From contig NZ_OZ255701.1 in assembly GCF_965276875.1 (NCBI RefSeq), positions 2,752,440 to 2,816,439 on the forward strand: DNA of 64,000 nucleotides, in the 5' to 3' direction. Origin of the DNA: Lichenicoccus sp. GTDB taxonomy: Bacteria > Pseudomonadota > Alphaproteobacteria > Acetobacterales > Acetobacteraceae. This document shows positions 10,306 to 38,196 of the stretch, in pieces. Numbering within the stretch: position 1 is the stretch's first letter; each line of letters opens with the position of its first letter. Position numbers and translations under genes: made by a program. The notes under the pieces were generated by a model. It did not search any database. It was not told the DNA's origin and saw only the letters and a program-made list of their open reading frames with translations.

Positions 10306-13142
10306 TCGGCGACGCTCGGCTCGGCGATTTGGGTCAGCGCCGTGTCCTCGTCGAAGAAGCGGGCCTGCCAGTCCGACATACGGTTGGTCTTGCGCACCTG
10401 CACCGCGGTGACTTTGTATTCCGGGCAGTTCGTCGCCCAGTCGGAATAATCCGTGGTGATCACGTTGGCGCCGGTCTTGGGATGGTGGAACGTGGTGTAG
10501 ACGACGCCGGGCTGCATCCGCTCGCTGATCCGCGCGCGCAGCGAGACGTCGCCGGAGCGGCTCGCGAGACACACCAGATCGCCCTCGACGACGCCGCGCT
10601 GCTCGGCGTCAAAGGGATGGATCTCCAGCACATCCTCTTCGTGCCAGCGGCTGTTCTCGGTGCGCCTTGTCTGCGCGCCGACATTATATTGCGAGAGGAT
10701 GCGTCCGGTGGTCAGCAGCAGCGGGAACAGTGTGCCGGTGCGCTCCTCGGTCGGGATGAACTCGGTAATCATGAAGCGGCCGAGCCCGCGCACGAAGCGG
10801 CCGACATGCATCGTCGGCGTGCCCGCGGGGGCGGCGTCGTTGCACGGCCATTGCAGCGAGCCGAGTGCGTCGATCTTCTCGTACGAGATGCCCTTGAAGC
10901 TCGGCGTCGAGACGGCGATCTCGTCCATGATCTCGGACGGATGGCTGTACTGCATGGCAAAGCCCAGCGCGTTGGAGAGCGCCATCGTCGCCTCCCAGTC
11001 GGCGAGGCCCCCCAGCGGCGGGATTACCTTGCGCACCCGACTGATGCGGCGCTCGGCGTTGGTGAAGGTGCCGTCTTTTTCCAGGAAAGACGAGCCGGGC
11101 AGGAACACGTGCGCGTATTTCGCGGTCTCGTTGAGGAACAAATCCTGGATGACGATGCATTCCATCGCGCGCAGCCCGGCGGTGACGTGCTGGGTGTCGG
11201 GGTCGGACTGGGCGATATCCTCGCCTTGGATGTAGAGGCCCTTGAAGCTGCCCTCGACGGCGTCGTCGAGCATGTTGGGAATGCGCCGGCCGGGTTCGCC
11301 TGAGAGCGACACGTTCCAGAGCGCCTCGAAGGCCTGGCGCACGCCGTCGTCGGACACATGCCGGTAGCCGGGGAACTCGTGCGGAAAGGAGCCCATGTCG
11401 CACGAGCCCTGCACGTTGTTCTGGCCACGCAACGGGTTCAGGCCGGTGCCGGGCTTGCCGATATTGCCGGTGGCCATGGCGAGGTTGGCCATCGCCATCA
11501 CCGTGGTGGAGCCCTGGCTGTGCTCGGTGACGCCGAGTCCGTAATAAATGGCGGCAGCCCCGCCGGTGGCGTACAGCCGTGCCGCTTGGCGAAGCGCCGT
11601 CGGGTCGACGCCGGTCAGCGCGGCGGTGGCCTCGGGTGAATTGCGCGGCTCGGCGATGAAGTGCTGCCAGCTATCGAAGGCCTGTGCGTCGCAGCGCTCG
11701 CGCACATAGTCGGTGGCGACCAGCCCCTCGGTCACCACCACGTGCGACATCGCGTTGAGCACGGCGACGTTGGTGCCAGGCAGCAAGGCGAGGTGGTGGG
11801 CGGCCTCGACATGCGGCGAGCGCACCAGGTCGATGCGTCGCGGGTCGACGACGATCAGCTTGGCGCCCGCGCGCAACCGCCGCTTCATGCGCGAGGCGAA
11901 CACCGGATGGCCGTCGGTCGGGTTGGCGCCAATCACCATGATCACGTCGGCGTCTGCCACGGAGGCGAAATCCTGGGTGCCGGCGGAGGTGCCAAGCGTG
12001 GTCATCAGCCCGTAACCGGTCGGCGAGTGGCAGACCCGGGCGCAGGTGTCGACATTGTTGTTGCCGAAGCCGGCGCGCACCAGCTTTTGCACCAGGAAGG
12101 TCTCCTCGTTGGTGCAGCGCGACGAGGTGATGCCGCCGATGCTGTCGCGGCCGTGGGTCGCTTGCAGGCGCCGGAACTCGCTCGCGGCGTGGCCGATCGC
12201 CTGCTCCCAGCTCACCTCCTGCCAGGGATCGCTGATCTTGGCCCGGATCATCGGCCTGGTGATGCGGTCCCTGTGGGTGGCGTAGCCCCAGGCGAAACGG
12301 CCCTTGACGCAGGAATGCCCCTCATTGGCGCGGCCGTCCTTGTAGGGAACCATGCGCACCAGGTCGGTGCCCTGCATCTCCGCCTTGAAGGCGCAGCCGA
12401 CGCCGCAATAGGCGCAGGTGGTGACCACCGAATGCTCGGGCTGGCCCTTGGCGATGACGCTCTTCTCGGTGAGCGTCGCGGTCGGGCAGGCCTGCACGCA
12501 GGCGCCGCAGGAGACGCATTCGGATCCGAAGAAATCGGTGGGGCCGGCGGCCACCTTGGAGTCGAAGCCGCGCCCCGTGATGGTGAGCGCGAACGTGCCC
12601 TGCACCTCGTCGCAGGCGCGCACGCAGCGCGAGCAGACGATGCATTTCGAGGCCTCGAAGGTGAAGTACGGGTTGGACTCGTCCTTGGGAGCGGCGAGAT
12701 GGTTGACGCCGTCCATGCCGTAACGCACCTGGCGCAGGCCAACGGCCCCGGCCATGTCCTGGAGTTCGCAATCGCCGTTGGCCGAGCAGGTCAGGCAGTC
12801 GAGCGGGTGGTCGGAGATATACAGCTCCATCACGCCGCGACGCAGTTGCGCGAGGCGCGCACTCTGCGTGCTGACCACCATGCCGTCCTCGGCCGGCGTT
12901 GTGCAGGACGCCGGTGTGCCGCGGCGTCCGTCGATCTCGACCAGGCAGAGCCGGCAGGAACCGAACGGCTCCAGGCTGTCGGTGGCGCAGAGCCTGGGGA
13001 TCCTGGTGCCGAGCGAGGCGGCCGCCGCCATCACCGAGGTGCCTTGCGGCACCGCGACGCTCTGGCCGTCGATGCGCAGGGTCACGGTTGTCTCGTTGGC
13101 GCGGATCGGCGTGCCGAAATCGGTCTCCTTGATCAGGCCCAT
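10302..13142 (-). CDS. fdsA: NAD-dependent formate dehydrogenase alpha (molybdopterin) subunit
   Basis: Starts at MGLIKETDFG. It has an N-terminal 2Fe-2S/4Fe-4S Cys clusters (NuoG-like) followed by a molybdopterin oxidoreductase body. The frame is continuous, with no in-frame TGA. The track start 13355 is an Arg-rich extension into fdsB. Confidence 0.95.
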   Translation of the reverse strand: MGLIKETDFGTPIRANETTVTLRIDGQSVAVPQGTSVMAAAASLGTRIPRLCATDSLEPFGSCRLCLVEIDGRRGTPASCTTPAEDGMVVSTQSARLAQLRRGVMELYISDHPLDCLTCSANGDCELQDMAGAVGLRQVRYGMDGVNHLAAPKDESNPYFTFEASKCIVCSRCVRACDEVQGTFALTITGRGFDSKVAAGPTDFFGSECVSCGACVQACPTATLTEKSVIAKGQPEHSVVTTCAYCGVGCAFKAEMQGTDLVRMVPYKDGRANEGHSCVKGRFAWGYATHRDRITRPMIRAKISDPWQEVSWEQAIGHAASEFRRLQATHGRDSIGGITSSRCTNEETFLVQKLVRAGFGNNNVDTCARVCHSPTGYGLMTTLGTSAGTQDFASVADADVIMVIGANPTDGHPVFASRMKRRLRAGAKLIVVDPRRIDLVRSPHVEAAHHLALLPGTNVAVLNAMSHVVVTEGLVATDYVRERCDAQAFDSWQHFIAEPRNSPEATAALTGVDPTALRQAARLYATGGAAAIYYGLGVTEHSQGSTTVMAMANLAMATGNIGKPGTGLNPLRGQNNVQGSCDMGSFPHEFPGYRHVSDDGVRQAFEALWNVSLSGEPGRRIPNMLDDAVEGSFKGLYIQGEDIAQSDPDTQHVTAGLRAMECIVIQDLFLNETAKYAHVFLPGSSFLEKDGTFTNAERRISRVRKVIPPLGGLADWEATMALSNALGFAMQYSHPSEIMDEIAVSTPSFKGISYEKIDALGSLQWPCNDAAPAGTPTMHVGRFVRGLGRFMITEFIPTEERTGTLFPLLLTTGRILSQYNVGAQTRRTENSRWHEEDVLEIHPFDAEQRGVVEGDLVCLASRSGDVSLRARISERMQPGVVYTTFHHPKTGANVITTDYSDWATNCPEYKVTAVQVRKTNRMSDWQARFFDEDTALTQIAEPSVAE

Positions 13143-14680
13143 GCGTGCGGCTCCTTGTCGAAATCCTCGGGGAAGTGCGTGAGCGCGCTTCTCACCGGCA
13201 CCGGCGTCAGGCCGCCCATGGCGCAGAGCGAGGTGTCGGTCATCAGGGTGCAGAGGTCGCCGAGCAGTGCCAGGTTGCGCGCGCGCTCGACGCCGGCGGT
13301 GATCCTGTCGACGACCTCCATGCCGCGCACCGCGCCGATGCGGCAGGGCGTGCATTTGCCGCAGCTCTCATGGGCGCAGAATTCGAAGGCGAAGCGGGCC
13401 TGGGCGGCAAGGTCGACGCTGTCGTCGAACACCACCACGCCGCCATGCCCGAGCAGGCCACCGGCCGCGGTGAAGGCCTCGTAGTCCATTGGGATCTCCA
13501 GCATATGCGCCGGGAAATAGGCGCCGAGCGGGCCGCCGACCTGCACCGCACGCAGCGGCCGCCCGGAGGCGGTGCCGCCACCGAGCTCCTCCACGATTTC
13601 GCGCAAGGAGGTGCCGAAAGCGACCTCGAGCAGGCCGCCGTGCCGGACATTGCCGGCGAGCTGCACGGCCAAGGTGCCGAGCGAGCGGTTGCCGCCATGC
13701 TGCGCATGGGTCTTGCCGCCGAGGGCCAGGATAGAGGGGATGGCGGCGAGCGAGAGCACGTTGTTGACCACGGTGGGCTTGCCGAACAGCCCGGACAGTG
13801 CCGGCAGCGGCGGCTTGGCGCGGACCGTGCCGCGGCGGCCTTCAAGGCTCTCCAGCAGCGAGGTCTCTTCGCCACAGATGTAGGCGCCCGCACCGAGCCG
13901 CGCCTCCAGGACGAAGCGCTGGCCCGATCCCGCGACGTCATCACCGAGCAAGCCGGCCTGCTCCGCCACCGCGATCGCGCGCTGCAGAGTACGAAAGGCG
14001 TGCGGATATTCCGAACGGCAATAGATGAAGCCCTTCGTCGCCCCGACCGTGAGCCCGGCGATGGTCATGCCTTCGATCAGGCAGAACGGATCGCCTTCCA
14101 TCAGCATTCGATCGGCGAAGGTGCCGCTGTCACCCTCGTCGGCGTTGCAGACGACGTATTTCTGCGAGGCCTGCGCCAGGCGCACCGTGTTCCATTTGAT
14201 GCCCGTCGGGAAACCCGCACCGCCGCGGCCGCGCAGCCCGGACAGCTTGATCTCGTCGACGCTCGCCTGCGCGCCGATCTCGGCGGCCCGGGCGAGACCC
14301 GCGTAGCCGCCATGCGCGCGATAGTCGTCGAGCGACAGCGGGTCGATGATGCCGCAGTGGGCGAAGGTCAGACGCGTCTGCCGGACCTGCCAGGGATGCC
14401 GCTCCGGCCGGCCGATAGCGAGCGCATGGTCGCCGCCATCGAGAAATCCGGCGTCGAACAGCGAGTCCACGTCGTCCGGCGTTACCGGCCCGTAGCCCGT
14501 TCGTCCGGACGCGGTCTCCACCTCGACCAGAGGCTCCAGCCAGACCATGCCGCGAGTGCCGTTGCGCACGATCTGCACCGGCCTGCCCAGGCGCTCCGCC
14601 TTGGCGCGGATCGCATCGGCAATCCGGTCGGCGCCCATTGCCAGGGCTACAGTGTCGCAGGGGACGAAAACTTGGGTCAT
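13133..14680 (-). CDS. fdsB: NAD-dependent formate dehydrogenase beta subunit (NuoF-like, FMN/NAD/4Fe-4S)
   Basis: NuoF-type motifs are present (GLRGRGGAGFPTG.KW, ..CGKCTPCR..). The start is MTQVFVP (ATG 14680); an ATG at 14695 is the alternative. Confidence 0.9.
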   Translation of the reverse strand: MTQVFVPCDTVALAMGADRIADAIRAKAERLGRPVQIVRNGTRGMVWLEPLVEVETASGRTGYGPVTPDDVDSLFDAGFLDGGDHALAIGRPERHPWQVRQTRLTFAHCGIIDPLSLDDYRAHGGYAGLARAAEIGAQASVDEIKLSGLRGRGGAGFPTGIKWNTVRLAQASQKYVVCNADEGDSGTFADRMLMEGDPFCLIEGMTIAGLTVGATKGFIYCRSEYPHAFRTLQRAIAVAEQAGLLGDDVAGSGQRFVLEARLGAGAYICGEETSLLESLEGRRGTVRAKPPLPALSGLFGKPTVVNNVLSLAAIPSILALGGKTHAQHGGNRSLGTLAVQLAGNVRHGGLLEVAFGTSLREIVEELGGGTASGRPLRAVQVGGPLGAYFPAHMLEIPMDYEAFTAAGGLLGHGGVVVFDDSVDLAAQARFAFEFCAHESCGKCTPCRIGAVRGMEVVDRITAGVERARNLALLGDLCTLMTDTSLCAMGGLTPVPVRSALTHFPEDFDKEPHAWA

Positions 14681-14687
14681 GCCCGGG

Positions 14688-15164
14688 TCATGCATGTGCC
14701 AGTGCGTCGTCGAGTTTGGCCGACGTCAGCCGAACCATCGGTGTGTCGTCCAACAGTGCTGCCGGAGCGCAGGCGCACAGGCCGAGGCAGTAGGTCGGCT
14801 CGATGGTGAGTTCGCCGTCCGCCGTCGTCGCGCTCCAATCGAGCCCCAACCGTGCGAGCAGCGCCTCCGCCAGCGCCACCGCGCCCATCGACTGGCAGGC
14901 CTCGGCGCGGCACAGCTTGAGGACATGGCGCCCAGCCGGCGCGCGGCGGAAGTCGTGATAGAACGAGATAACCCCATGCAGCTCGGCGCGCGAGATGTTC
15001 AGGGCGCTCGCGATCAGCGGCTCCGCCTGCGACGGGACGCAGCGGAATTCGTCCTGGAGTGCGTGCAGGATCGGCAGCAACGGGCCCTCCAGACCGAGAT
15101 GCGCCTCGATGATCGCCTGGGCCCGCGTTGTTTCCGGCCAGCCGGATTGCTGTGTGATGGACAT
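14688..15164 (-). CDS. fdsG: NAD-dependent formate dehydrogenase gamma subunit (NuoE-like 2Fe-2S)
   Basis: Starts at MSITQQ (ATG 15164). The NuoE-like Cys pattern is present (..LKLCRAEACQ.. and ..CLGLCACAP..). Confidence 0.9.
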   Translation of the reverse strand: MSITQQSGWPETTRAQAIIEAHLGLEGPLLPILHALQDEFRCVPSQAEPLIASALNISRAELHGVISFYHDFRRAPAGRHVLKLCRAEACQSMGAVALAEALLARLGLDWSATTADGELTIEPTYCLGLCACAPAALLDDTPMVRLTSAKLDDALAHA

Positions 15165-15243
15165 GATTGGATGCTGGCCCGAGAAAGGGTGCTTGTCGAG
15201 TTGGCAGCTTGACGGCGGTCTCGTGTCGCGCGACAGGGCAGGC

Positions 15244-15762
15244 ATGAACCTCGCCGACGGCGTCAACCGCGCGGATAACTGGATCCTGGACCGCGTCTTC
15301 CAGCCGATGGCCGACCGGCTCGGCGAAAAGCCGACGGCGTTCGAAATCGGCATGAGCATGCAGCTCGGTGCCATCGTGCTCGATGCCGCGGCCGTGATAG
15401 CCATATTCATGGTGGGCGGCCTGAGCATCGATTCCGCGCTGTGGAACGGGCTGATGTGGGCGCTGGGGTTCGCCTTCTATTTGTCGATCAACCGAATGCG
15501 GCCGCTGGTGCGTCCCGGACACGCCAACCCGCTGCGCTTCATGCTGCAGGGCTTCCGGCCGCTCTCGATCCCGTTCCTGCTCTATAGCGCGGTGCAGGCG
15601 GCCCTCGCGCACCCACCGTTCCAGATGGCGATGCAATTCAATGCGCTGGCCAACCTGGTGTTCGTGATCGGCCTGTATATGGTCTCGACCCAGCCCAAGC
15701 CGCCGCGCCAGCGCCAGACCGTGCGCTCAGGCTGGCGCCAGGAGGCGGGGAGCGGCTTTTAA
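15244..15762 (+). CDS. Hypothetical integral membrane protein
   Basis: Four hydrophobic segments follow MNLADGVNRADNW. I recognise no family. It is divergent from fdsG, and its stop overlaps the kinase stop in a shared TTAA. Confidence 0.5.
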   Translation: MNLADGVNRADNWILDRVFQPMADRLGEKPTAFEIGMSMQLGAIVLDAAAVIAIFMVGGLSIDSALWNGLMWALGFAFYLSINRMRPLVRPGHANPLRFMLQGFRPLSIPFLLYSAVQAALAHPPFQMAMQFNALANLVFVIGLYMVSTQPKPPRQRQTVRSGWRQEAGSGF

Positions 15763-17159
15763 GCACGAACGCCTTGGGCGGCCCCCCCACTCGTGAATTC
15801 CATACTGACCCGTAAGCCGGGGTTTGCCGGTTGCAGGCGCAGCTTGGCGCCATGCAGATCGGCTACCGCGCTGACCAGGCTGAGCCCAAGCCCATGGCCG
15901 GCGGTCGTGCGGCTGCGCTCGCCACGATAAAAGCGTCGGGTGATGCGCGGTAGATCCGCCTCCGCCACACCAGGGCCGTCATCCTCGACCGCGAGCACGA
16001 CGTGCGCCTGTTGGTCCTGGCCCAGACCTACGCGAATGCAGGTGCCGGGGGGCGTATGACGCAGGCCGTTCTCGACCAAATTGGCGAGCGCCTGGGTCAG
16101 CAGTTCACGGTCGCCGCGTAGCACGATGCCGGGGGCGATCGCGGTGGCCAGGCTGCGGCCGGCGGCTTCCGCGTCCGGTCGGTAGGCGTCGACCACGGCT
16201 TCGGCGACGGTGCTCAAGTCGACCGCGCGAAAGTGCGCGCTCGGCAGGCCGCCCTCGACCTGGGCGATGCGCAGCAGGGCGGAGAAGATGTCGAGCAGGC
16301 CGTCTGCCTCGGCGATGGCGGCGTCGATCGCCGCGGCAAAGGCCGGCGCCCCGTGCGCCTGGGCGCGGGCATCCTCGAGACGCTGATAAAGCCGGGTCAG
16401 CGGCGTGCGCAGGTCGTGCGCCGCGTCGCTGCCGACCTGGCGCAGACTGTCCATCAGCGCGCCGATGCGATCGAGCATCCGGTTCAGCGTTCCGGCGAGG
16501 CGGTCGAGGTCGTCGCCTGTGCCCCGCAGCGGCATGCGACGGGCGAGATCGCCGCCGATGATCGCCTCGGCGGTGTTGGAGATCGCATCCACCCTGCCGA
16601 GAAACGCCCGGCTCAGCCACACGCCGCCGCCGATGCCGAGCAGGCCGGCCGCCCCGATCGCCCAGACCAGCGCGGTGGTGATCGCCTCCTGCAGATCCTC
16701 AATCTGGTCGAGATCGTCGCCGACCGCCAGGGTCACGCCGTGGCCCAGATCGCTCACCAGGGTGCGGACATGTCCCGTCTCGCCGTCAACGTCGCGAGCA
16801 GTGGGGATTGTCGTCCAGCCCGCTCGCCACGGCATCGCGTGGGCGAGCGTGCCCGCCAGACGCGCGCCGCCAGGGCCCTCAACCCGGTACTCAAGCGCGC
16901 CGGTGCCGTGGCCGCGTGCGGCGACCAAGGCGAGCAGATGCTCCAGGCCGCCGTCCCGGTCGGCATCGCGCAGCAGCGCGGTCTCCGTCTCGATCCGCGC
17001 CGTCATCTGCTGGCGCAGCGCGGCGCGGGCTTCAAGCAGGACAACGCCCCCCAGGATCGACGCCGAGGCCGCGAACAGAACGACATAGAGGGCGGCGAAG
17101 CGAAAGCTTGCGGCGCGCAGCAGCCGCGGCACGGCCAGCCTGCTCACGCGGGGGGGCAC
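15759..17159 (-). CDS. Sensor histidine kinase (two TM, HAMP, HisKA, HATPase)
   Basis: It has an H-box (AAHDLRTPLT), an N-box (NLVENGLRHTP) and G-boxes (DDGPGV, GHGLGLSLV). The GTG start sits directly after the response-regulator stop. Confidence 0.9.
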   Translation of the reverse strand: MPPRVSRLAVPRLLRAASFRFAALYVVLFAASASILGGVVLLEARAALRQQMTARIETETALLRDADRDGGLEHLLALVAARGHGTGALEYRVEGPGGARLAGTLAHAMPWRAGWTTIPTARDVDGETGHVRTLVSDLGHGVTLAVGDDLDQIEDLQEAITTALVWAIGAAGLLGIGGGVWLSRAFLGRVDAISNTAEAIIGGDLARRMPLRGTGDDLDRLAGTLNRMLDRIGALMDSLRQVGSDAAHDLRTPLTRLYQRLEDARAQAHGAPAFAAAIDAAIAEADGLLDIFSALLRIAQVEGGLPSAHFRAVDLSTVAEAVVDAYRPDAEAAGRSLATAIAPGIVLRGDRELLTQALANLVENGLRHTPPGTCIRVGLGQDQQAHVVLAVEDDGPGVAEADLPRITRRFYRGERSRTTAGHGLGLSLVSAVADLHGAKLRLQPANPGLRVSMEFTSGGAAQGVRA

Positions 17160-17837
17160 TCACGGGGTGCGCAGGCTGTAGCCGGCGCCGCGTAAGGTGT
17201 AGATCAGCTCGACGCCGCCGAACTGCGACAGCTTGCCCCGTAACCGGCTGATATGCGTCTCGACGATGTTGGTCCTGGGATCGAAGTGGAAGTCCCATAC
17301 CGCCTCGAGCAGCATGGTGCGGGTCACCACCCGGTCGGCGTTGCGCAGCAGATATTCCAGCAACTGGAACTCGCGCGGTTGCAGCTCGATCGGCCTGCCG
17401 GCACGCATCACGGAGCGTTTCAACAGGTCCATCACGAGGTCGCCCGCAGTCAGCTTTGTGACCGGTGCCTCACCGAGCGGCGGGCGGCGCGCAAGCGCGT
17501 TGACCCGGGCCAGCAGTTCGGCAAAGGCGAACGGCTTGACCAGATAATCGTCGCCGCCCGCCTCCAGGCCGCGAACCCGGTCGCCGACGCCACCGAGCGC
17601 GGTCAGGAACAGCACCGGCGCCTTGACCCCGGTGCCGCGCAGCGCCTGCACCAGGCCGATCCCGTCCAGGCCTGGCAACATGCGGTCGATGATCAGCACG
17701 TCATGGCCGCCGTCATTTGCCATCATCAAGCCGTCCCGGCCGGTGGCTGCGCATTCGACCAGGTGGCCGTGCTCGCGCAGGCCGCGGCCGACATAGGCCG
17801 CGGTTTCCGCGTCGTCCTCGATCAGCAGGAGCTTCAT
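17160..17837 (-). CDS. OmpR-family response regulator
   Basis: REC domain (MKLLLIEDD..IIDRMLPGLDG..DDYLVKPF) plus a winged-helix C-terminus (..LTAGDLVMDLL..REFQLLEYL..VETHISRLR.KL). Confidence 0.95.
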   Translation of the reverse strand: MKLLLIEDDAETAAYVGRGLREHGHLVECAATGRDGLMMANDGGHDVLIIDRMLPGLDGIGLVQALRGTGVKAPVLFLTALGGVGDRVRGLEAGGDDYLVKPFAFAELLARVNALARRPPLGEAPVTKLTAGDLVMDLLKRSVMRAGRPIELQPREFQLLEYLLRNADRVVTRTMLLEAVWDFHFDPRTNIVETHISRLRGKLSQFGGVELIYTLRGAGYSLRTP

Positions 17838-18149: not shown

Positions 18150-19502
18150 ATGAAGGCTCGAAGCTTCACCATTGTGCTCTGCTGCGCCGCACTTGCCGGT
18201 TGCGCGAGCTACCGCCCGCAGCCGCTCCGGCAGCATGCGCGCCTCGCCACCGGTGTGGCGGGGCTGGACCGGACGCGACCGGGTGCCGCGCCGATTCCAG
18301 CCGACCAGCCGCTGACCCCGGCCGAGGTTTCACTGCTCGCGGTCGCCAACAGCCCCGCTTTGAAAGCCTTCCGGGCCCGCCATGGCGTGGCCGCGGCGCA
18401 GGTGGTGCAGGCCGGTTTGCTGCCCGATCCGGTGTTTTCGACGGGCTACGACGTGCTGCTCGCCGGTCCCGACTTCGCCAACAACTTCACCGCCGCTTTG
18501 ACCGCTGACGTGGGGTCGCTGATTACCCTCTCGGCCAGGCGACGGGCGGCGCGTCAGGCGGCGATGGATGTCGATGCGCAGATCGTCTGGCAGGAATGGC
18601 AGACGATCAGCCGCGCCCAGACGCTCGCGATCGATCTGGTCGAGCAAGGCAGGCTGCTGGAGAGCCTGCGCGATACGCTCGCTTTGCTGCGCCATCGCGC
18701 CGCGACCACCCGGCGCGGGATCCGGGAGGGCACCGCCACCTTGCAGATGCTGGCCCCGGACATCTCTGCCTTGATCGTGCTGCAGACCCAGCTCGACGCC
18801 GCGGTGCTGGCCCAGCAGCAACGTTGGCAGAGCCTGGACCTGCTGCTCGGCCTGGAGCCCGACGTGCGGCCGCTGCTCGCGCATAACGTCAGCGTGCCGG
18901 CAATCACGCCTGCAGAGGCGGCATCCATGCTGGCGGCGCTGCCGCGGCGGCGGCCGGATCTGATCGCGCTGCAACTGGGCTACGCCTCGCAGGAGGCACG
19001 GATGCGCGCCGCGGTGCTCGGCCAGTTCCCGGCGCTGACCATCGGCCCGAACTACACCGAGGACACCTCGCGTACGCAGACGGTGGGTCCCGCGGTCAGC
19101 ATCGGGCTGCCGCTGTTCAACCGCAACCGCGGCGCCATCGCCATCGAGCGCGCCTCGCGCACGCAGTTGCAGGCGGAATACGACGACCGGCTGGCGACGG
19201 CGGAATCAGGTGCGCGCGCGTTGCTGGCCAATCTCGGCCTTGAGGAGCGGCAGTTGCGGGCGGCGGTCGCGGCCAAGCCGGAAGCGCGCAGGCTCGCCGT
19301 CGGAGCGCAGACCGGGCTTAACCGCGGGCTGCTGGACGAGCTGAGCTATGTCCAGTTGGTGGTGGCCAAGCTCGACCAGGAGCAGCAGGTGATCGGGCTT
19401 GAGCAATTGGTGCTGGATGAGCGCACGGCGCTGGCGACCCTGCTCGGCGCCGGCCTGCCGCCGGTCAAGCTGGTGCCGCCGAAGTCGCGGAGCCTGCTGT
19501 GA
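18150..19502 (+). CDS. Outer-membrane efflux factor (TolC/CzcC-like lipoprotein)
   Basis: Lipobox (LAGC) and two OEP-type repeats. It is the first gene of the OMF-MFP-RND operon. Confidence 0.9.
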   Translation: MKARSFTIVLCCAALAGCASYRPQPLRQHARLATGVAGLDRTRPGAAPIPADQPLTPAEVSLLAVANSPALKAFRARHGVAAAQVVQAGLLPDPVFSTGYDVLLAGPDFANNFTAALTADVGSLITLSARRRAARQAAMDVDAQIVWQEWQTISRAQTLAIDLVEQGRLLESLRDTLALLRHRAATTRRGIREGTATLQMLAPDISALIVLQTQLDAAVLAQQQRWQSLDLLLGLEPDVRPLLAHNVSVPAITPAEAASMLAALPRRRPDLIALQLGYASQEARMRAAVLGQFPALTIGPNYTEDTSRTQTVGPAVSIGLPLFNRNRGAIAIERASRTQLQAEYDDRLATAESGARALLANLGLEERQLRAAVAAKPEARRLAVGAQTGLNRGLLDELSYVQLVVAKLDQEQQVIGLEQLVLDERTALATLLGAGLPPVKLVPPKSRSLL

Positions 19503-20521
19503 GACATCTGCTCGTCCTGGCCGCTTGGCTTTTGCTCTCGACGCCGGCGCTGGCAGCCCCCAGCGTTCTGGTGCAGACGCAGCCGCCGCATCGTGGCGCG
19601 CTGCCGCGTCTGCTCGACACCTACGGCACCATCCAGGCGGCGCCGGGCGGCGGCAGCGAAACCATCAGCCTGCCGCGGCCGAGCGAGGTGACGGCGCTCT
19701 CGGTGTACGCCGGCGAGCCGGTTCATGCGGGGCAAATGCTGCTCGCCTTGCGCGCGGATCCGGCGTCGGTCGCCGCCTACCAGCAGGCGGTGGCGGCGCT
19801 GACCCAGGCACGCGGCAACCATACCAGGGCGACGGAGATGCTGCGCGAGCATCTCGGCACAAGGGACCAGTTGGCGCTGGCGGTGCAGGCGCAGCAGGAT
19901 GCGCAGGCCAATCTCGACGCGATTGAGCGCAGCGGTGGCGGCGCGCCGGAGCAGACCGTCTCCGCCGCCTTCGACGGGGTGGTGTCGGCGGTGCTGGTGG
20001 CGCAGGGTGCGCGGGTGGCGGCGAACACGCCGCTGCTGACCGTGGTGCGCAGCGCGGGGCTGGTCGCGGCGGTGGGCATCGAGCCGGGGCAGAGCGACAA
20101 GGTGGCGGTGGGCCAGCCGGCGACGATCGTGCCGCTCTATGGCGATGCCACCGCCCAGGGACGGGTCGGCTCGGTCGGCGGGCTGCTCGATCCGCGCACC
20201 AGACTGGTGCCGGCGATGATCGCGCCGCCACCCGGAGCCTCGATGACGCCTGGTACGCCGGTGCGGGTGGCGATCACCACCGGCTCGATGGACGGTTGGC
20301 TGGTGCCGCGCGACGCGGTCTCCACCGACGCGCATGGTCCGCATGTCTTTGTCGTGGGTGCCGGCAAGGCACATCGGGTCGAGGTGAAGATCGTAGGCCA
20401 CGCGGGCGACACCACGGTGGTCAGCGGCACGCTCGATATGGCGACACCGCTGGTGACCTCGGGCAATACCCAGTTGCATGACGGCGAGGACGTCCGCACC
20501 GACAGTTCGGGCAGCCAGTGA
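19499..20521 (+). CDS. RND efflux periplasmic adaptor (MFP) subunit
   Basis: The GTG overlaps the upstream stop (GTGA). It has a signal peptide and an HlyD/biotinyl-lipoyl-like architecture. Confidence 0.9.
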   Translation: MRHLLVLAAWLLLSTPALAAPSVLVQTQPPHRGALPRLLDTYGTIQAAPGGGSETISLPRPSEVTALSVYAGEPVHAGQMLLALRADPASVAAYQQAVAALTQARGNHTRATEMLREHLGTRDQLALAVQAQQDAQANLDAIERSGGGAPEQTVSAAFDGVVSAVLVAQGARVAANTPLLTVVRSAGLVAAVGIEPGQSDKVAVGQPATIVPLYGDATAQGRVGSVGGLLDPRTRLVPAMIAPPPGASMTPGTPVRVAITTGSMDGWLVPRDAVSTDAHGPHVFVVGAGKAHRVEVKIVGHAGDTTVVSGTLDMATPLVTSGNTQLHDGEDVRTDSSGSQ

Positions 20522-23500
20522 GCAAGCAGAATCCTCAGCGCGGTTTTGTCGCGCGCCATACCCGCTCGATCCTCGCCGTGCTGCTGGCCCTGGCGGTCGC
20601 GGGCGTGCTCTCGGCGACAGTACTGCCGATGCGTCTGTTCCCGCAGGTCGCCTTCCCGCGCATCCTGATCGATGTGAATGCGGGGGCGAGGCCGGCGCAA
20701 CAGACGGTGCTGCTCGTCACGATCCCGCTCGAGCAGGCGGTGCGCGGGGTGCCTGGTGTGCGCACCATGCGCTCGACCACCAGCCGCGGCTCGGTGCAGA
20801 TCGCGCTGGACTTTCCCTGGGGCACCAACATGGTGGCGACCGCCACCGAGGTGAACGCGGCCGTCGCCCAGACCCTGCCGAGCCTGCCTGCCGGCGCGCA
20901 GTATCAGGTGCGACGGATGAACCCCACGGTCTATCCGATCATCGCCTACTCGCTGTCGTCGAAGACCATCAGCGCCGTGGCGCAACGTGATCTGGTGCAA
21001 TACCAGATCGTGCCGCTGCTGACCGCGATCCCCGGGGTGGCGCATGTCGGCGTCCAAGGCGGCCAGGTCGAGGAGATCGAGGTCCTCGTCGACCCGCATC
21101 GGCTCGCAGCGCACGGGCTGGCGCTGTCCGACGTGGTGCTCGCTTTGTCCAAGGCCAACGTGCTGAGCGTGGTCGGCCGCATGCAGGACCATGACAAGCT
21201 GCTGCTGCTGGCACTTGACGACACCATCCGCCAGATCGCCCAGGTGCGGCAGACGGTGCTGCAGTCTGGTCCGGGCGGCGTGGTGCATGTCGGCGATGTG
21301 GCGGCGGTCCGCGAAGGCTCGGAGCCGCAATGGATACGCATCGGCGAGGACGGCCATCCGTCGGTGCAGTTCCAGGTCTACCAGCAGCCGAGCGGCAACA
21401 GTGTGGCAATCTCGGCGGCGGTGCGCGAGGCGCTTGCCGACTACCGGCCGCAGATGCCGCCCGGCGTGACACTCACCAAATGGTATGACCAGAGCATGCT
21501 GGTGACGCAATCCACCGGCAGCGTCCGTGACGCGGTGCTGATCGGGTTGGGGCTCGCGGGTCTCGTGCTCTACGCCTTTTTGCGCAGCCTGCGGGTGACG
21601 GCGGTGGCGATGCTGGTGGTGCCGGCGACGCTGGCCACCACCGTGCTGCTGCTCGAGATGCTGGGCATGACCTTCAACATCATGACCCTGGGCGGCATCG
21701 CGGCCGCCGTCGGCCTGGTGATCGACGACGTGATTACCATGGTCGAGCATCTCGCCCGGCGCGCCGGCCAGAACGGCGCCGCCGACGACGCGAACGGCGA
21801 TAGTCCGGTGCTGCGCGCCGGGCGCGAGTTCCTGCCGCCGCTGAGCGGCTCCAGCACGGCGACCTTGCTGGTGTTCCTGCCGCTGATTTTTCTCGGCGGC
21901 GTCACCGGGGCTTTCTTCAAGGCGCTATCGCTGACAATGGCCGCCGCCCTGATCATCTCCTACGGCCTGACCGCGCTGGCGGTGCCGGTGCTGACCCGTC
22001 TGCTGGTCAATTTCGACAAATGGAAGGACCCGGGCGACGCGCCGGAGGGCCGTGTTGGGCGCGCGCACCGCTGGGCCCTGGACAAGCTGTTCGCGCGGCC
22101 CTGGCTGCTGCTGCTGGGGCTGGCGCCGCTGCTGGTGCTCGGCTGGTTCGCCTTCAACAATGTCGGCAGCGGCTTCATGCCGGAGATGGACGAGGGCGGC
22201 TTCGTGCTCGACTACGTCTCCGCACCAGGCACGTCGCTTGCCGAAACCAGGCGCGAGCTGGCGCAGGTCGAGCAGATCCTGCGCGGCATCCCGTCGGTTG
22301 CGACCTTCTCCAGCCGGATCGGCACCGGCCTCGGCGGCGGCCTTAGCGAACCCAATACCGGCGACCTGTTCGTGCTGCTCAAGACCGGCGCGCGTCCGCC
22401 GATCACCAGCATCATGGAACAGGTGCAGGATCGTATCGACGCGCAGGTCCCGGGCCTCGACGTCTCGCTCGCACAGCTCATGCAGGACCTGATCGGCGAT
22501 CTCACCGCGGTGCCGGAGCCGATCGAGGTCAAGCTGTTCGCCGACGATCCGGCCAAGCTGGCGCCTGCCGCCAAGAAGATTTCCGCCGCCATCGCCAAGG
22601 TGCAGGGCGTGGTCTCGGTGCGCGACGGGATCGTGATTGCCGGCGATGGATTGCGGATCAAGCTCGATCCGACCAAGGCGGCAATCGAGGGCGTCGACAG
22701 TGCGGAGGTCGAAAGCGCGCTGAACACCTACCTGACCGGCACTGTGGCCACCCAGATGCCGCGGCCGCTCAAGCAGATTGGCGTGCGCGTCTGGCTGCCG
22801 CCTGGCATGCGTCGCTACGACGACCAGCTCGCGAACCTGCCGATACGGGCACCCGACGGCCATGTGTTCGCCCTGGGTCGTATCGCGACGATCACCCCCG
22901 CACCCGGCGAGCCGGAGATCGAGCGGCAGAACCTCGCCCGCATGGTGGCGGTGACGGCACGGCTACAGGGCCGCTCGCTGGGTGCTGCGGTCGGCGACGT
23001 AATAAAAGTGCTCAACCGCCCCGGCATGATGCCCCAGGGCGTGCGCTACGAAATGGGCGGCCTCTATGCACAACAGCAGATCGCGTTCGCCGGGCTGATC
23101 CGGGTGTTTGCCGCGGCCGTTGTCGCGGAGTTCGTGCTGTTGCTGTTCCTGTATGAGAGTTTCGCGATCGCCGCGATCGTGCTCACGGCGGCGCTGCTCT
23201 CGGCGATCGCGGTGTTCGCCGGGCTATGGTTCACCAATGTGCAGCTGAACATCACCGCGATCATGGGTATGACCATGATCATCGGCATTGGCACCGAAAT
23301 GGCGATCTTCCTGGTTTCCGAATGGGTCGACCTGAAGGCCGAAATGCCGCCGCGCGACGCCCTGCTGGAAGCCGCCCGCAACCGCTTCCGCCCGATTGCG
23401 ATGACCACGCTCGCCGCCATCCTGACCTTGCTGCCGCTCGCCCTTGCGTTCAGCCGCGGCTCGGGCCTGCAACAACCGCTGGCTATCGCGATCATTTCCG

Positions 23501-23601
23501 GCTTGATCGTGCAGATGCCGCTGGTGCTGTTCGCAATGCCCGTCGTCATCGGCTTTACCCTGCCGAAGGCAGAGCGGTCGCAGTCGCCGCACGGGGCATA
23601 G
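20518..23601 (+). CDS. RND efflux transporter permease subunit
   Basis: GTGA overlap with the upstream gene. About 1027 aa with 12 TM and two large periplasmic loops. The TM4 motif AVGLVIDDVITMVEH is present. The substrate class cannot be decided from sequence. Confidence 0.95.
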   Translation: MSKQNPQRGFVARHTRSILAVLLALAVAGVLSATVLPMRLFPQVAFPRILIDVNAGARPAQQTVLLVTIPLEQAVRGVPGVRTMRSTTSRGSVQIALDFPWGTNMVATATEVNAAVAQTLPSLPAGAQYQVRRMNPTVYPIIAYSLSSKTISAVAQRDLVQYQIVPLLTAIPGVAHVGVQGGQVEEIEVLVDPHRLAAHGLALSDVVLALSKANVLSVVGRMQDHDKLLLLALDDTIRQIAQVRQTVLQSGPGGVVHVGDVAAVREGSEPQWIRIGEDGHPSVQFQVYQQPSGNSVAISAAVREALADYRPQMPPGVTLTKWYDQSMLVTQSTGSVRDAVLIGLGLAGLVLYAFLRSLRVTAVAMLVVPATLATTVLLLEMLGMTFNIMTLGGIAAAVGLVIDDVITMVEHLARRAGQNGAADDANGDSPVLRAGREFLPPLSGSSTATLLVFLPLIFLGGVTGAFFKALSLTMAAALIISYGLTALAVPVLTRLLVNFDKWKDPGDAPEGRVGRAHRWALDKLFARPWLLLLGLAPLLVLGWFAFNNVGSGFMPEMDEGGFVLDYVSAPGTSLAETRRELAQVEQILRGIPSVATFSSRIGTGLGGGLSEPNTGDLFVLLKTGARPPITSIMEQVQDRIDAQVPGLDVSLAQLMQDLIGDLTAVPEPIEVKLFADDPAKLAPAAKKISAAIAKVQGVVSVRDGIVIAGDGLRIKLDPTKAAIEGVDSAEVESALNTYLTGTVATQMPRPLKQIGVRVWLPPGMRRYDDQLANLPIRAPDGHVFALGRIATITPAPGEPEIERQNLARMVAVTARLQGRSLGAAVGDVIKVLNRPGMMPQGVRYEMGGLYAQQQIAFAGLIRVFAAAVVAEFVLLLFLYESFAIAAIVLTAALLSAIAVFAGLWFTNVQLNITAIMGMTMIIGIGTEMAIFLVSEWVDLKAEMPPRDALLEAARNRFRPIAMTTLAAILTLLPLALAFSRGSGLQQPLAIAIISGLIVQMPLVLFAMPVVIGFTLPKAERSQSPHGA

Positions 23602-23722
23602 GTTCGAACCGTGCTTGTCATCCTCTTTACACAGCGATGTGTAGCCCCGCTCCGACAAAATAAACTGATCGGCCGTCAGGGGAAATGTCAGGAGCATCAT
23701 CTGTTCTGAGGCGGCTACCCTC

Positions 23723-24487
23723 ATGGAACAAGGCCTGATGACTTCACAGTTCTGGCTATGGTTCGACGTGATCGCCATGCTTGCCGGCGGCAGCCTGATC
23801 CTCGCCATCGGCAAACGTCGCACCGGCCATGAGGAGGCGCACACCGTTATCCACGGCATCGTGCCCATCATCGCCGCTTGTCTTTATCTGCTGATGGCGA
23901 CCGGCCAGGGCAGCATCCTGCTGCCGATCCTGCCCGGCAGTGCCACGACACGCATCTTCTATTTCGGACGCTATATCGACTGGACCTTCACCACGCCGCT
24001 CCTGCTCATGGGTCTGGCCTACACAAGCATGCCGAGCGGCCTGCGCCGCGGCGGCGCTATTCTCGGCATGCTGCTCGCGGACGTGATGATGATCGGGACC
24101 GCTTTGGCGTTCGGCGCCTCGGTGGTCGAATGGATCAAGTGGACCTGGTTCATCGTCTCCTGCGTGGCGTTCCTCGGCGTCTACTACGTCATGTGGGTGG
24201 CGCTGCTTCAGGAAGCCGGGCGCGAACGCGCAAAGGTGCGGTCCGACTATGTTCGCGACGCCGCGATCCTCTCGGTTCTGTGGTTTCTTTATCCGGTAAT
24301 CCTGGGTCTCGGCACCGACGGCACCGGTATCCTGAGCAGCACGACCAGCGTCGCCTTGATTGCGATCGTCGACCTGCTCTCGAAGGTCGCCTACGGCCTG
24401 CTGAGCACCGTCAGCACCGGTAAGCTGGTTGACGAGGATCTCAACGACGAAGGGAAGGTTACGGCCTCGGCACGCCGGGCGGCCTGA
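23723..24487 (+). CDS. Microbial (type-1) rhodopsin, D-T-G helix-C motif
   Basis: Seven TM. Helix C is RYIDWTFTTPLLLMG, aligning to bacteriorhodopsin RYADWLFTTPLLLLD; this gives D86, T90 and G97 at the BR 85, 89 and 96 positions. Helix F has WFLYP. Helix G is DLLSKVAYG, with the Schiff-base Lys at K221 and the counter-ion at D217. Confidence 0.85.
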   Translation: MEQGLMTSQFWLWFDVIAMLAGGSLILAIGKRRTGHEEAHTVIHGIVPIIAACLYLLMATGQGSILLPILPGSATTRIFYFGRYIDWTFTTPLLLMGLAYTSMPSGLRRGGAILGMLLADVMMIGTALAFGASVVEWIKWTWFIVSCVAFLGVYYVMWVALLQEAGRERAKVRSDYVRDAAILSVLWFLYPVILGLGTDGTGILSSTTSVALIAIVDLLSKVAYGLLSTVSTGKLVDEDLNDEGKVTASARRAA

Positions 24488-24996
24488 TGGTCCTGACCGA
24501 TCTTGCCGCGCACTGGTTTCGGAACGCGGCCGGGGGACTGCCGGATCGGTGGCGGCAGCGACGATCATCCGGGGCAAGAGCGGGACGCTCGGTTCCGATC
24601 ACGTTGCTCACCATCGGTATCGGGGCCGCGCTATGGCCGCTGGTGGGGGACGGGCCATTCAACATGCATCTGCTGTCGTTGACGATCCGTGGCCTTGCCG
24701 CACTAACCTTGCCGCACATTCTGCTCGACGCCCTTTCAGCCACGCCGATCTGGCGCCGGATCGTGTCGCGAATGCAAGTCAAGGACGGCGTCACTGTCTG
24801 GCGACGACAATGCACTTCATTCTTGGCCCCATTTCTGTCCAGTCCGTATGCTCCAGCGGATCGGAAGGATCGGCAGCACGATCCACACAATATGGGTTCC
24901 TGCAGTCACGGTCGGATCCTTCCAGCACGCGGCAAGCCCGGCCCGCTACATTGCGGTCAGGAGAGTTTGATCCAAGGGTCAAGCCTGGTTCCATGA
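24487..24996 (+). CDS. Hypothetical ORF translationally coupled to the rhodopsin (possibly a degenerate Brp/Blh remnant)
   Basis: Its ATG overlaps the rhodopsin stop (TGATG). Only the first ~85 aa look membrane-like (..ITLLTIGIGAALWPL.. ..LTIRGLAALTLPHILLD..). The rest is low-complexity or non-membrane, and GC falls after ~24700. Coding status is doubtful. Confidence 0.25.
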   Translation: MVLTDLAAHWFRNAAGGLPDRWRQRRSSGARAGRSVPITLLTIGIGAALWPLVGDGPFNMHLLSLTIRGLAALTLPHILLDALSATPIWRRIVSRMQVKDGVTVWRRQCTSFLAPFLSSPYAPADRKDRQHDPHNMGSCSHGRILPARGKPGPLHCGQESLIQGSSLVP

Positions 24997-25068
24997 AGGG
25001 AACATGGGCAAGGAGGAAAACCGGGTGCTGTACGCAGGCCGCAGCGCAAGAGACGTTGTCGCATCCCA

Positions 25069-25428
25069 TCACGATGCCGTCTCCTCCAAAAGCACCGTCG
25101 CACATGTTCCTGTCGTCAGGTCCACCCGCACCTCGCGCGCAACCGGCACCGGCCTGACCTCCCGTCCTTCCCGTTCCAGCCGGATCAGACCGTGGCCGGC
25201 GAGCAGTTGAAGGGAACGCGAGACATTTGGCTGGGCGCGGCCCGTCAGGGCGACGAGCTCCGCGATTGTCGTCGGCCGCTCCCGAAGCACAACACCAAGC
25301 AGGTCGAGTGCTTCCCGTGACAGGGCGGCTAGCAGGGGTGCCGCCGGCAGTGGCGCGGCGCGTCGCTCCCCGCGTGCTACGCCCCGCATCTCCTCGCGTA
25401 GGTCAGAAAGACTCTTCCGCGCCATCAT
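25069..25428 (-). CDS. MarR/winged-HTH-like small DNA-binding protein (putative antitoxin/regulator)
   Basis: The translation ..LSREALDLLGVVLRERPTTIAELVALTGRAQPNVSRSLQLLAGHGLIRLEREGR.. is a winged helix. The start overlaps the upstream gene by 26 nt. Confidence 0.7.
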   Translation of the reverse strand: MMARKSLSDLREEMRGVARGERRAAPLPAAPLLAALSREALDLLGVVLRERPTTIAELVALTGRAQPNVSRSLQLLAGHGLIRLEREGREVRPVPVAREVRVDLTTGTCATVLLEETAS

Positions 25429-25807
25429 CGTCCTCCGGCTCCAGTTCCACGTCCTCTGCCTTGAATTCAAACGCCACACCCTCCTGGCGGCATGCCATCT
25501 CCACCGCCGCAAAGAAGTCGCAGATCAGCTCGTCCGCACCTTGGTTATTGTAGCGCACCAGCTCGGCCGTTCTTCGAAAGCGGTGCCGATGGTCGTAGGC
25601 CTCAGCGCGGGGCAAGCCGTGGGCGTTGTCGAAGCCAAGCAGGCGTCTCCGGTCTACGTCGTGCAGCGTGAACGAGTATCTAATCCCATATGGCCGCTCC
25701 GTCGTCGTAGCCGTCTGCGCTATCCGGAAGCGAATGCTCCACCCATTTGCCAGCCAATAGCGACGCCGGTCATAATCGAGCAGTCGGTGCATCGCCTCGT
25801 CCGTCAT
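25403..25807 (-). CDS. Small conserved protein, DUF6516/'TumE'-like (putative toxin component)
   Basis: The translation ..GIRYSFTLHD...RLLGFDNAHG.......YDHRH.. plus an acidic tail matches my recollection of that family. This is unverified. Confidence 0.6.
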   Translation of the reverse strand: MTDEAMHRLLDYDRRRYWLANGWSIRFRIAQTATTTERPYGIRYSFTLHDVDRRRLLGFDNAHGLPRAEAYDHRHRFRRTAELVRYNNQGADELICDFFAAVEMACRQEGVAFEFKAEDVELEPEDDDGAEESF

Positions 25808-25995
25808 ATTTCCATATATCTAGTGATGATATGATTTGCAAGGGAGGATGCCAAGCGATGACCGATCAAGAGCACGAGCTTGACCGTTGTCCCGCGATGG
25901 TTTTGAAAGCGGCTTTCCATGCCGACGAGGAGTCGGGGCGGGCCGTCATTCCCCTCATGTCGAGGTGTCAGCTGCCGGCGGCGAGTAGAAGGTTC

Positions 25996-27441
25996 TCAAC
26001 GAAACCTCTCGACCTCCTGCCAAAAGGCGGCCTTGCGGCCGTGGGCGGTTCTGAGGCCTTGGGCATACGCCGCGTGATCGGGTTTGCCGTTGAAGTCGGT
26101 GATGCGCGAGGCGAGGCTGGCGCAGTCGGCGAGGTGGCGGGCAGCATGCTTGTAGCGTGTTGCGCGCGTTTGTTCGAGCGTGAAGTCGATCATTGCCCGG
26201 CGCAGCAGGGTGGCGGCGAGGGGGTATTTGTCGTCGAGCGCATCGGCGGCGGGGCTCAGGAATTCGTAGAGATCGCCGTTCAGCCGGTGGGCCTCGGCCA
26301 GCACCAATTCGTTGGCCTGGTGCAAAGCGGGCCAGTTGACCAGGAAAGCCAGAGCCTGGTGGACGTCCCGGTAGGTGAGGGCGTGCGCCAGGGCGCGTTG
26401 CTCGGCCTCGAAATCCTCGAAGTCGGGCAGCCGGCGTAGGTGCTCGCGCAGGTGCGTTTCGTTCAGCGTGTCGAGGAACCGCTGCCAACGATAGTCCTGG
26501 GCTTGCTCGGCGCGGTTGAGCGCCTCGAGCGTATCAAGGTGCGCCTGCTCCCACTCTATCGGCGCCCGCGCGCGCCTCGCAGGGTCGACGGCCTCCAACG
26601 CTTGCTTCGCGTCCGTCGGACGGCCCGCGTCGAGCAGGCGCCGTGCGATCGCGGCGGCGGCAAGCGGGGTCTTGCGCGCGGCCAGGTCGATTTGCGCGAT
26701 GTAGCCGTCAACGTTGCCCTGCGCGTCGGCAATTTGCTGGAGAACGAAGCTTGCGACGGAGCGGCGATGGCTGGACTCGATCTGGTCCGCATAAATGTTT
26801 CCCGAACTGCTCCAGCCGACCACCCGCCGCTCGCGCTCGGGAGGGACGGGCACCTTCTGCGCCTTGAACGCCTGCATGAGCGTCTTGATGCGGGCAAGCC
26901 CGGGGACGCCCAACTGTGGCGCAAGGGTCGGGACCAGCGCATCCCACGTGTCATACTGGTCGCGTCGCAACGCCTCGAAAGCGCGTTCGGCAAGACCCAC
27001 CGGGTCCAGCTTGGCAGCCTGCGCCAACGGCCCGAGGTCACGCACGGCGCCCTGGAAAATTTCGGTGAGCCGTCCGCTGCGGTCATCGCTGCGAGCGAAC
27101 ACCGACTGCGCGCAGCCGACCAGTTGCCAGAGCAGCTCGAACGCCTCGCGCGGATCGCCCGGTGCCAGCAGGTCGAGGATGGCGCGGCGCTGCGACTCCA
27201 GGTCGGCGGCCAGCGATTTGACCTGTTGGGCGTCCATGAAGCCGCGGGCCTTGGCGATGCTCGCCAGCCGCTTGCCCACCTCGCGGCTCGCCTCCGCCGG
27301 GCCGGCATTGCCCGCGAGTGCCAGGCGCAGCCGACGCTTGGCCGCGGCGCTGCCGGTGCTGATCTCGATCAGAAGTGCCGCCAGCCGTGCGGCCCCAAGT
27401 GTCTCGAGGTTGGCCGCGTTGAGTGTCTTGCCAGATGCCAT
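25996..27441 (-). CDS. Large alpha-helical hypothetical protein (DUF6880-like)
   Basis: A clean 481-aa ORF with non-artefactual composition. I recognise no catalytic motif. Confidence 0.65.
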   Translation of the reverse strand: MASGKTLNAANLETLGAARLAALLIEISTGSAAAKRRLRLALAGNAGPAEASREVGKRLASIAKARGFMDAQQVKSLAADLESQRRAILDLLAPGDPREAFELLWQLVGCAQSVFARSDDRSGRLTEIFQGAVRDLGPLAQAAKLDPVGLAERAFEALRRDQYDTWDALVPTLAPQLGVPGLARIKTLMQAFKAQKVPVPPERERRVVGWSSSGNIYADQIESSHRRSVASFVLQQIADAQGNVDGYIAQIDLAARKTPLAAAAIARRLLDAGRPTDAKQALEAVDPARRARAPIEWEQAHLDTLEALNRAEQAQDYRWQRFLDTLNETHLREHLRRLPDFEDFEAEQRALAHALTYRDVHQALAFLVNWPALHQANELVLAEAHRLNGDLYEFLSPAADALDDKYPLAATLLRRAMIDFTLEQTRATRYKHAARHLADCASLASRITDFNGKPDHAAYAQGLRTAHGRKAAFWQEVERFR

Positions 27442-38075: not shown

Positions 38076-38127
38076 TTGCCCGCACCCCCCAAAAGAGGCC
38101 GATGACACATCCGTGGGGGCGCCACAT

Positions 38128-38149: not shown

Positions 38150-38196
38150 CAAAGCCCCGATGGACGCGGCGGCGGCCGTCGCGCAAGCTGCCTCGT

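Follow-up and report, generated by a model that had tools for sequence, protein, structure and literature searches.

The stretch of Lichenicoccus sp. DNA analysed here (64,000 nucleotides of contig NZ_OZ255701.1, hereafter the window) carries at 23616-24764, in degraded form, a photosystem cassette consisting of a leader and two genes, one for a microbial rhodopsin and the other, blh, for beta-carotene 15,15'-dioxygenase. The opsin gene is intact and lies beside a blh that has been deleted in place. On what we regard as probably the correct reading, the opsin is pump-competent and would export a cation, most likely H+, using retinal obtained from elsewhere, while its position behind an RND efflux operon is incidental. 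An original prediction, made by a model from the sequence alone, had described this gene as an orphan. It is instead one half of a rhodopsin-blh cassette, and the locus thereby shows how an "orphan" rhodopsin can originate, through in-place deletion of the linked retinal-synthesis gene.

The identity of the opsin is beyond reasonable doubt. The 254-aa open reading frame (ORF) at 23723..24487 (+) matched the Pfam Bac_rhodopsin profile (PF01036) over its residues 7-231 with an E-value of 1.3e-40 (139.7 bits; cutoff 24.6), and 135 distinct rhodopsin sequences in the PDB matched the protein (E up to 0.001). An AlphaFold2 model built from a 49-sequence alignment (pLDDT 91.4, pTM 0.87) showed seven helices (3-24, 30-54, 76-97, 105-127, 131-160, 165-191 and 201-248) together with a B-C hairpin, and superposed on solved rhodopsins with TM-scores of 0.82-0.87. 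Profile and model thus agree with the seven-helix rhodopsin originally predicted. The start codon, previously placed at 23723, is more likely the second ATG at 23738, giving a protein of 249 aa (MTSQFWLW...), since homologues of 247-250 aa begin MT(S/A)Q(F/T)WLW, gene callers use this start, and the upstream ATG, which adds five non-conserved codons, is out of frame or missing in relatives.

Alignment to bacteriorhodopsin (BR; the reference sequence used is identical to PDB 1o0a) placed D, T and G at BR positions 85, 89 and 96, W, Y and P at positions 182, 185 and 186 inside the helix-F sequence WFLYP, and D and K at positions 212 and 216 in helix G, the lysine being that of the Schiff base. 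In the 249-aa numbering used below, the key residues are D81, T85, G92, D212 and K216, with W182, Y185 and P186, H39 at the BR-T46 position, and E32, E33 and H35. The residues previously listed as D86, T90, G97, D217 and K221 are correct in the 254-aa numbering, and the WFLYP motif was likewise borne out. All of the retinal-pocket residues (BR R82, W86, W182, Y185, P186 and D212, plus the Schiff-base lysine) occur in the protein and agree with the family consensus, as do all 26 of the BR-numbered key positions inspected, so that none of the disabling pocket substitutions named in the original prediction as grounds for rejecting it was seen.

No frameshift or stop was found in the opsin. Compared with seven close relatives it has eight private substitutions, a lower count than in most blh-intact relatives, and none of them falls at a column conserved at 90% or more. 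The pairwise ratio of nonsynonymous to synonymous substitution rates (dN/dS) between this opsin and its relatives was 0.10-0.18, against 0.15-0.21 among relatives with intact blh. The opsin is therefore intact, with no sign of decay. An apparent 91-nt skip inside it, seen in three sequencing runs and considered as a deletion variant, was traced to contigs that carry divergent homologues and come from other organisms of the sample; these share only the conserved RYIDWTFTTP region with the window opsin. The source sample is a community. In runs X1 and X3 other contigs (depth about 8-48) match window 23851-23998 at RYIDWTFTTP only, aligning across the conserved helix-C region, and at least one sample contig reads ...TGHEQAHTIY..., that is, another organism in the sample has a rhodopsin of the same family.

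The 169-aa ORF that follows the rhodopsin is, as judged by alignment, a remnant of blh (Table 1). This blh is translationally coupled to the rhodopsin gene, its ATG overlapping the TGA in just the arrangement seen in intact relatives, where the gene at this junction encodes a full-length Blh of 319-339 aa (L083, L084, L085, L086/L087 and L089); L002 provides a more distant example of a full-length blh downstream of a rhodopsin. The remnant matched the Pfam BCD profile only at positions 205-262 of 267 (E 1.4e-6) and intact Blh only at residues 222-271 (tblastn, E 1e-11), while the Blh of L085 gave a tblastn E-value of 6e-24. With blastn, window 23616-24542 aligned to L084 2795-3722 at 80.5% identity and window 24586-24743 to L084 4432-4589. 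The net in-frame loss amounts to about 670 nt; what survives, in the same frame, is about 18 codons at the N-terminal end and 52 at the C-terminal end. Four of the five His-containing motifs conserved across four intact Blh sequences were lost with the deletion; PHGALD, HFG and H-x-P-x-H are gone and LPH(M/I)LLD alone remains. Given the loss of about 670 nt and of these motifs, the cassette is no longer able to make retinal from beta-carotene. The G+C content at third codon positions (GC3) is 0.66 in the remnant against 0.82 in the rhodopsin.

The deletion junction is real in the source DNA, being spanned by exact unitigs (23971-25535 or 23505-25535) in four independent runs of the source sample. 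The 169-aa ORF should be marked in annotation as a blh pseudogene. Two inverted repeats (23718-23738/24979-24999 and 23915-23934/24863-24882) were considered as cassette ends or as an inverted opsin fragment and were rejected as chance, the local alignment score of 30 lying within the range of shuffled sequences (mean 20.7, maximum 32).

A rhodopsin-blh cassette is the norm in the Acetobacteraceae/Methylobacterium rhodopsin family to which the window protein belongs. A scan at one genome per species recovered 80 loci, mostly from metagenome-assembled genomes (MAGs) of Acetobacteraceae, many of them from lichen metagenomes, with the rest from Methylobacterium/Methylorubrum and one Janthinobacterium MAG; with metagenomic relatives added the set came to 86 loci. 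The metagenome scan added two further contigs, both of the L084 lineage. A full blh lies immediately downstream of the rhodopsin in 56 of the 86 loci, and none was found within 1.8 kb downstream in 24 of them. In a whole-locus scan of the first 82, 28 lacked a blh in the available flanks of up to 10 kb on either side. Clear remnants were recognized in the window and in L001, two further loci gave only insignificant partial matches (E 0.3-0.7), and two of the 86 lie too near a contig end to be scored. The search of the window cassette for an intact downstream blh (Pfam BCD) returned the remnant only.

Within the window's own subclade there are eight distinct rhodopsins at 80% identity or above, the window included, all with a DTG motif. 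In five of the eight the opsin stop is overlapped by the ATG of a full-length blh, and the contig of a sixth (L090) ends after the first 83 blh codons; blh is broken only in the window and in L001. L001 is a sister lineage with an intact opsin 85-87% identical to that of the window and a broken blh at 2234-2730. This blh has lost roughly its first 55 codons along with two internal blocks and contains an in-frame stop. The middle of the gene, absent from the window, is still there, and parts kept by the window are gone. As the lesions differ, the two losses are independent, although coverage of the L001 contig is only 2.7x and its small lesions could be assembly errors.

The Pfam scans agree with the original observation that no intact crt or blh gene is visible in the 64 kb, although that observation had overlooked the blh remnant at 24487-24764. 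Phytoene synthase and desaturase, lycopene cyclase, intact BCD and RPE65-type oxygenase were all absent among the roughly 50 candidate ORFs covering the window. The rhodopsin would accordingly work here only if all-trans-retinal came from an enzyme elsewhere in the genome or from neighbouring organisms. A functional rhodopsin has been reported in a bacterium without known retinal genes (PMC7734400). Aurantimicrobium minutum (PMC7734400) and Saccharibacteria (bioRxiv 10.1101/2022.02.13.480300) have an intact opsin with no working blh adjacent and need another source of retinal; what distinguishes the present locus is that a blh remnant still overlaps the opsin stop and that sister lineages keep an intact blh.

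Two DTG/DTS clades have been described by Okhrimenko et al., the SpaR-like "mirror proteorhodopsins" with H32 and H33, and the MpR-like proteins, "most" of which carry an E32/E33/D35 triad (PMC10154332). In a neighbour-joining tree of 97 sequences, which did not include MpR itself, the window rhodopsin fell inside a large clade joining Acetobacteraceae-type and Methylobacterium/Methylorubrum sequences, with SpaR and PspR on a separate branch. By this placement it belongs to the MpR-like clade and not to the PspR/SpaR proton-pump clade. All 16 of the Methylobacterium loci read DTG with E32/E33/D35, at positions that align to SpaR 30/31/33, the correspondence given in that paper, and this agreement with the published signature supports the identification of the clade. 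The original assignment to the DTG type therefore holds for the motif but not for membership of the proton-pump clade. The motif by itself says little, because its third residue is labile in the clade. At BR-D96 the Acetobacteraceae-type members have S, T, A, G or P and Methylobacterium always has G, while Glu32 is invariant.

The identity of the window protein is 54-55% to the Methylorubrum homologues (MpR-like, DTG), 43% to SsGHR (8XX8, a TTG anion pump), 38% to SpaR (8ANQ, DTS), 37% to RxR, 36% to PspR (7W74, DTG) and 30% to BR. With the MpR-like clade it shares the DTG motif, E32/E33, the His at BR-T46 and, in its relatives, a downstream blh; it differs in having H35 in place of D35, in its separate Acetobacteraceae-type subclade with a variable third motif residue, and in its deleted blh. 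H35 is common to 57 of the 73 Acetobacteraceae-type members and corresponds to SpaR H33, and H39 (SpaR H37) is invariant across the family. The best match of solved structure was SsGHR, the glycilhalorhodopsin of Salinarimonas soli (E 5e-40, TM-score 0.87; PMC11532467), and both proteins have Gly at BR-D96, E-E at 32/33 and WFLYP. SsGHR, however, is an inward anion pump with Thr at BR-D85 and Gln at BR-T46, where the window protein has Asp81 and H39, and the Thr that defines glycilhalorhodopsins is thus lacking. SpaR and PspR (PMC10154332; PMC8927995) share with it the D-T-G/S motif with no carboxylate donor, a His at BR-T46 and a His at SpaR position 33 (TM-scores 0.82-0.84), but form a separate clade, and the window has A34 rather than SpaR H32, E32/E33 rather than A/L, and G126 rather than S121. 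Only two of the four mirror-proteorhodopsin residues (SpaR H32, H33, S121 and S199) are matched, the window reading A34, H35, G126 and S204. Overall the protein adds one more ordinary member to a family already known from bacteria of soil, leaves and lichens. It sits in the less studied of the two clades.

By the reading favoured here, the window opsin would carry out light-driven outward pumping of a cation, most likely H+. D81 would act as the proton acceptor, with R78 and D212 forming the counter-ion complex. Because a carboxylate donor is lacking (G92), reprotonation of the Schiff base would have to proceed by way of an open cavity on the cytoplasmic side, with H39 as its gate, as proposed by analogy with PspR, which has no donor residue (PMC8927995), and with SpaR, in which H37 acts as a gate or donor (PMC10154332). 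Both retinal binding and ion transport are predictions at this stage.

Several points weigh against this reading. The scan for retinal and carotenoid genes covered the 64-kb window of a 4.38-Mb genome. The dN/dS values average over a long history (dS about 0.7), and the blh deletion may have happened too recently for the opsin to show decay. A comparison of private changes, aimed at dating the deletion or any relaxation of constraint, gave 5 of 52 in the blh remnant and 10 of 248 in the opsin, a higher share in the remnant but not a significant difference (p = 0.15). No characterised member of the H35 (Acetobacteraceae) subclade was found in the literature, and the sole characterised member of the wider clade, MpR, is given in PMC10154332 as a reported Li+/Na+ pump, which makes H+ selectivity an assumption. 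Finally, with no consensus promoter or terminator detected near the gene, there is room for read-through from the RND operon.

A further, more tentative proposal is that the opsin has stayed in use after the in-place loss of blh, with retinal that is scavenged from partners in the community or comes from an as yet unrecognized enzyme, and that the H35 subclade could have an ion selectivity, pH profile or Zn2+ sensitivity of its own. Continued use is suggested by the window and L001 having lost blh independently while keeping the opsin under purifying selection. In about 28% of the family no blh is linked to the rhodopsin, and the H35 subclade combines the MpR-like E32/E33 with the SpaR-like H35/H39. 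If the opsin is indeed still used, this would be one more terrestrial rhodopsin dependent on externally supplied or unconventionally made retinal.

The opsin may alternatively be a non-functional relic, a useless apoprotein without retinal in which lesions have yet to accumulate. The blh is destroyed, the 64 kb holds no crt, blh or carotenoid-oxygenase gene, and a recent loss of constraint would be beyond the resolution of pairwise dN/dS; the deletion need not be old, as the remnant is still 75-80% identical to intact relatives at the nucleotide level. We nevertheless consider this explanation doubtful. The opsin carries no frameshift, stop or private change at a conserved column, in L001, too, an intact opsin accompanies a blh that was broken independently, opsins are also intact in the loci that have no blh downstream (24 of 86) or in the flanks (28 of 82), and there is the precedent of a functional rhodopsin in a bacterium without known retinal genes (PMC7734400). 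The suggestion of a decaying gene in the original prediction is thus apt for the photosystem, whose blh is dead, and not visibly so for the opsin.

It is also unlikely, to a slightly greater degree, that the protein is a Li+/Na+ pump like MpR of Methylobacterium populi, the one characterised MpR-like member (Cho et al., 2021, as cited in PMC10154332); cytoplasmic carboxylates would then recruit the cation. The window protein has E32 and E33, and its large clade also holds the Methylobacterium/Methylorubrum rhodopsins that carry E32/E33/D35. Its position 35, however, is His as in the proton pumps SpaR (H33) and PspR, an arrangement shared with the majority of Acetobacteraceae-type members noted above, and the features of NDQ-type Na+ pumps are absent. 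The MpR claim itself comes from one paper, and the account in PMC10154332 words it as "Cho et al. claimed".

The original prediction had further proposed that the rhodopsin might serve as a source of proton motive force placed next to an efflux pump that consumes it. The two are on the same strand, the gap from the RND stop (23601) being 121 nt to the ATG at 23723, as originally stated, or 136 nt to that at 23738, and no intrinsic terminator was predicted between them. Coupling to, or co-transcription with, the RND operon nonetheless seems very improbable. Homologues of the window RND, MFP and OEP genes adjoin the rhodopsin in none of the 86 related loci, among them about 10 contigs representing the seven other rhodopsins at 80-88% identity. 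One subclade has distant RND paralogues (24-28% identity) 3-7 kb from the rhodopsin, with parC in between in L002. The genes upstream of the rhodopsin in the close relatives all differ, and include DUF2141, prephenate dehydratase and FKBP-family genes, an MFS-like transporter gene and small unknown ORFs. Proton motive force is in any case delocalised, so that gene adjacency is needless, and without blh a chromophore for the rhodopsin is not guaranteed.

The cassette also brings its own leader. Homology to L084, L085 and L001 begins at window 23616-23637, just past the RND stop and 100-120 nt before the start codon, and this leader of about 110 nt is conserved in four genomes (the window, L084/L091, L085 and L001) despite their different upstream genes, which suggests that it holds the rhodopsin's own promoter or operator and argues against dependence on read-through. 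A perfect palindrome within it may be a subclade-specific operator. ACACA-N4-TGTGT recurs at the corresponding position in L084 and L085, L001 has a degenerate form of it, and the palindrome is present in three of the 86 upstream regions, all from the window's own subclade. A scan of 23300-25300 for sigma-70 promoters and intrinsic terminators found none, and an Rfam scan of 23000-26200 found nothing. A search for sequencing runs returned four of the source sample and no RNA-seq of the organism. Because the adjacency is not conserved and the leader is conserved with the cassette, the position of the rhodopsin behind the RND operon is regarded as incidental and not as a functional pairing, and the RND neighbourhood should not be used for inferring rhodopsin function. 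The case corrects an attractive but unsupported story of a light-driven energy source wired to an efflux pump.

A sensory role, offered in the original prediction as an alternative, is the least credible of all. The lack of a carboxylate proton donor predicts a slow photocycle, as in sensors, but the equivalents of D85 and D212 are both present (Anabaena sensory rhodopsin has Pro at the D212 position), neither the window nor any relative has a transducer gene next to the rhodopsin, the partner gene in relatives always being blh, and the nearest MCP gene is 38 kb away.

Table 1. Features of the rhodopsin cassette and its neighbourhood (positions in the window).
Feature	Position	Strand	Evidence
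Leader travelling with the cassette	23616..23737	+	blastn homology to relatives, alignment
Perfect palindrome TACACA-GCGA-TGTGTA, candidate operator	23628..23643	.	Leader sequence comparison
Microbial rhodopsin gene, 249 aa (likely start)	23738..24487	+	Pfam PF01036, AlphaFold2 model, key residues, dN/dS
blh remnant ORF, 169 aa, in-frame internal deletion, read-through past the normal stop	24487..24996	+	Pfam BCD, tblastn, alignments
blh 5' end retained, about 18 codons	24487..24542	+	blastn to L084
Deletion junction, about 43 nt against about 710 nt in intact relatives	24543..24585	+	Alignments, sample unitigs
blh 3' part retained (RSVPITLLTIGIGAALWP...GLAALTLPHILLD...)	24586..24764	+	blastn, 75-80% identity to L083, L084, L085
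OEP-MFP-RND efflux operon	18150..23601 (18150-19502, 19499-20521, 20518-23601)	+	Pfam OEP, HlyD_D23, ACR_tran 1.9e-191
Histidine kinase and OmpR-type response regulator, divergent	15759..17837	-	Pfam; NCBIfam CopRS/CzcRS type below cutoff
TumE-like toxin ORF overlapping HTH (HVO_A0114/MarR_2/ArsR-like) ORF	25069..25807	-	Pfam TumE 3.1e-6; low-G+C stretch

The OEP, MFP and RND genes overlap start to stop, as an operon would, and constitute a genuine tripartite efflux operon. The divergent two-component pair facing it probably regulates this operon and not the rhodopsin; its best NCBIfam matches were to the heavy-metal CopRS/CzcRS/SilRS regulators, below the curated cutoffs. The RND system was considered as a heavy-metal exporter on account of its OMF-MFP-RND gene order and these regulators, and all of its NCBIfam matches, including CusA/CzcA for the permease, also fell below the curated cutoffs.

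Across about 23.0-26.0 kb the G+C content falls to 0.59-0.64, compared with 0.67-0.71 in the flanks. Directly downstream of the blh remnant, the TumE and HTH ORFs resemble a toxin-antitoxin pair, and together with the dip in G+C they fit an accessory patch of the genome. A full-length DUF6880 protein (25996-27441, -; Pfam 6.5e-182) adjoins this pair. The RND genes, the TumE/HTH pair and the DUF6880 gene were found in no close relative's locus.

Elsewhere in the window, 45780-48000 has a low GC3 and no strong ORFs save a Rap1a-like type VI immunity ORF (45780-46175, Pfam 1.5e-14), and may be foreign DNA. At 9168-15428 (-) a formate/nitrite transporter is followed by a set resembling a soluble NAD-linked formate dehydrogenase, whose molybdopterin subunit has NuoG-type Fe-S domains and is accompanied by an FMN subunit of the Nuo51 type and a thioredoxin-like 2Fe-2S subunit. 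The stretch 36843-42414 holds a formamidase/acetamidase gene (FmdA_AmdA, 2e-177) and, divergent from it, genes for a large hybrid histidine kinase and for a response regulator of the LuxR type.

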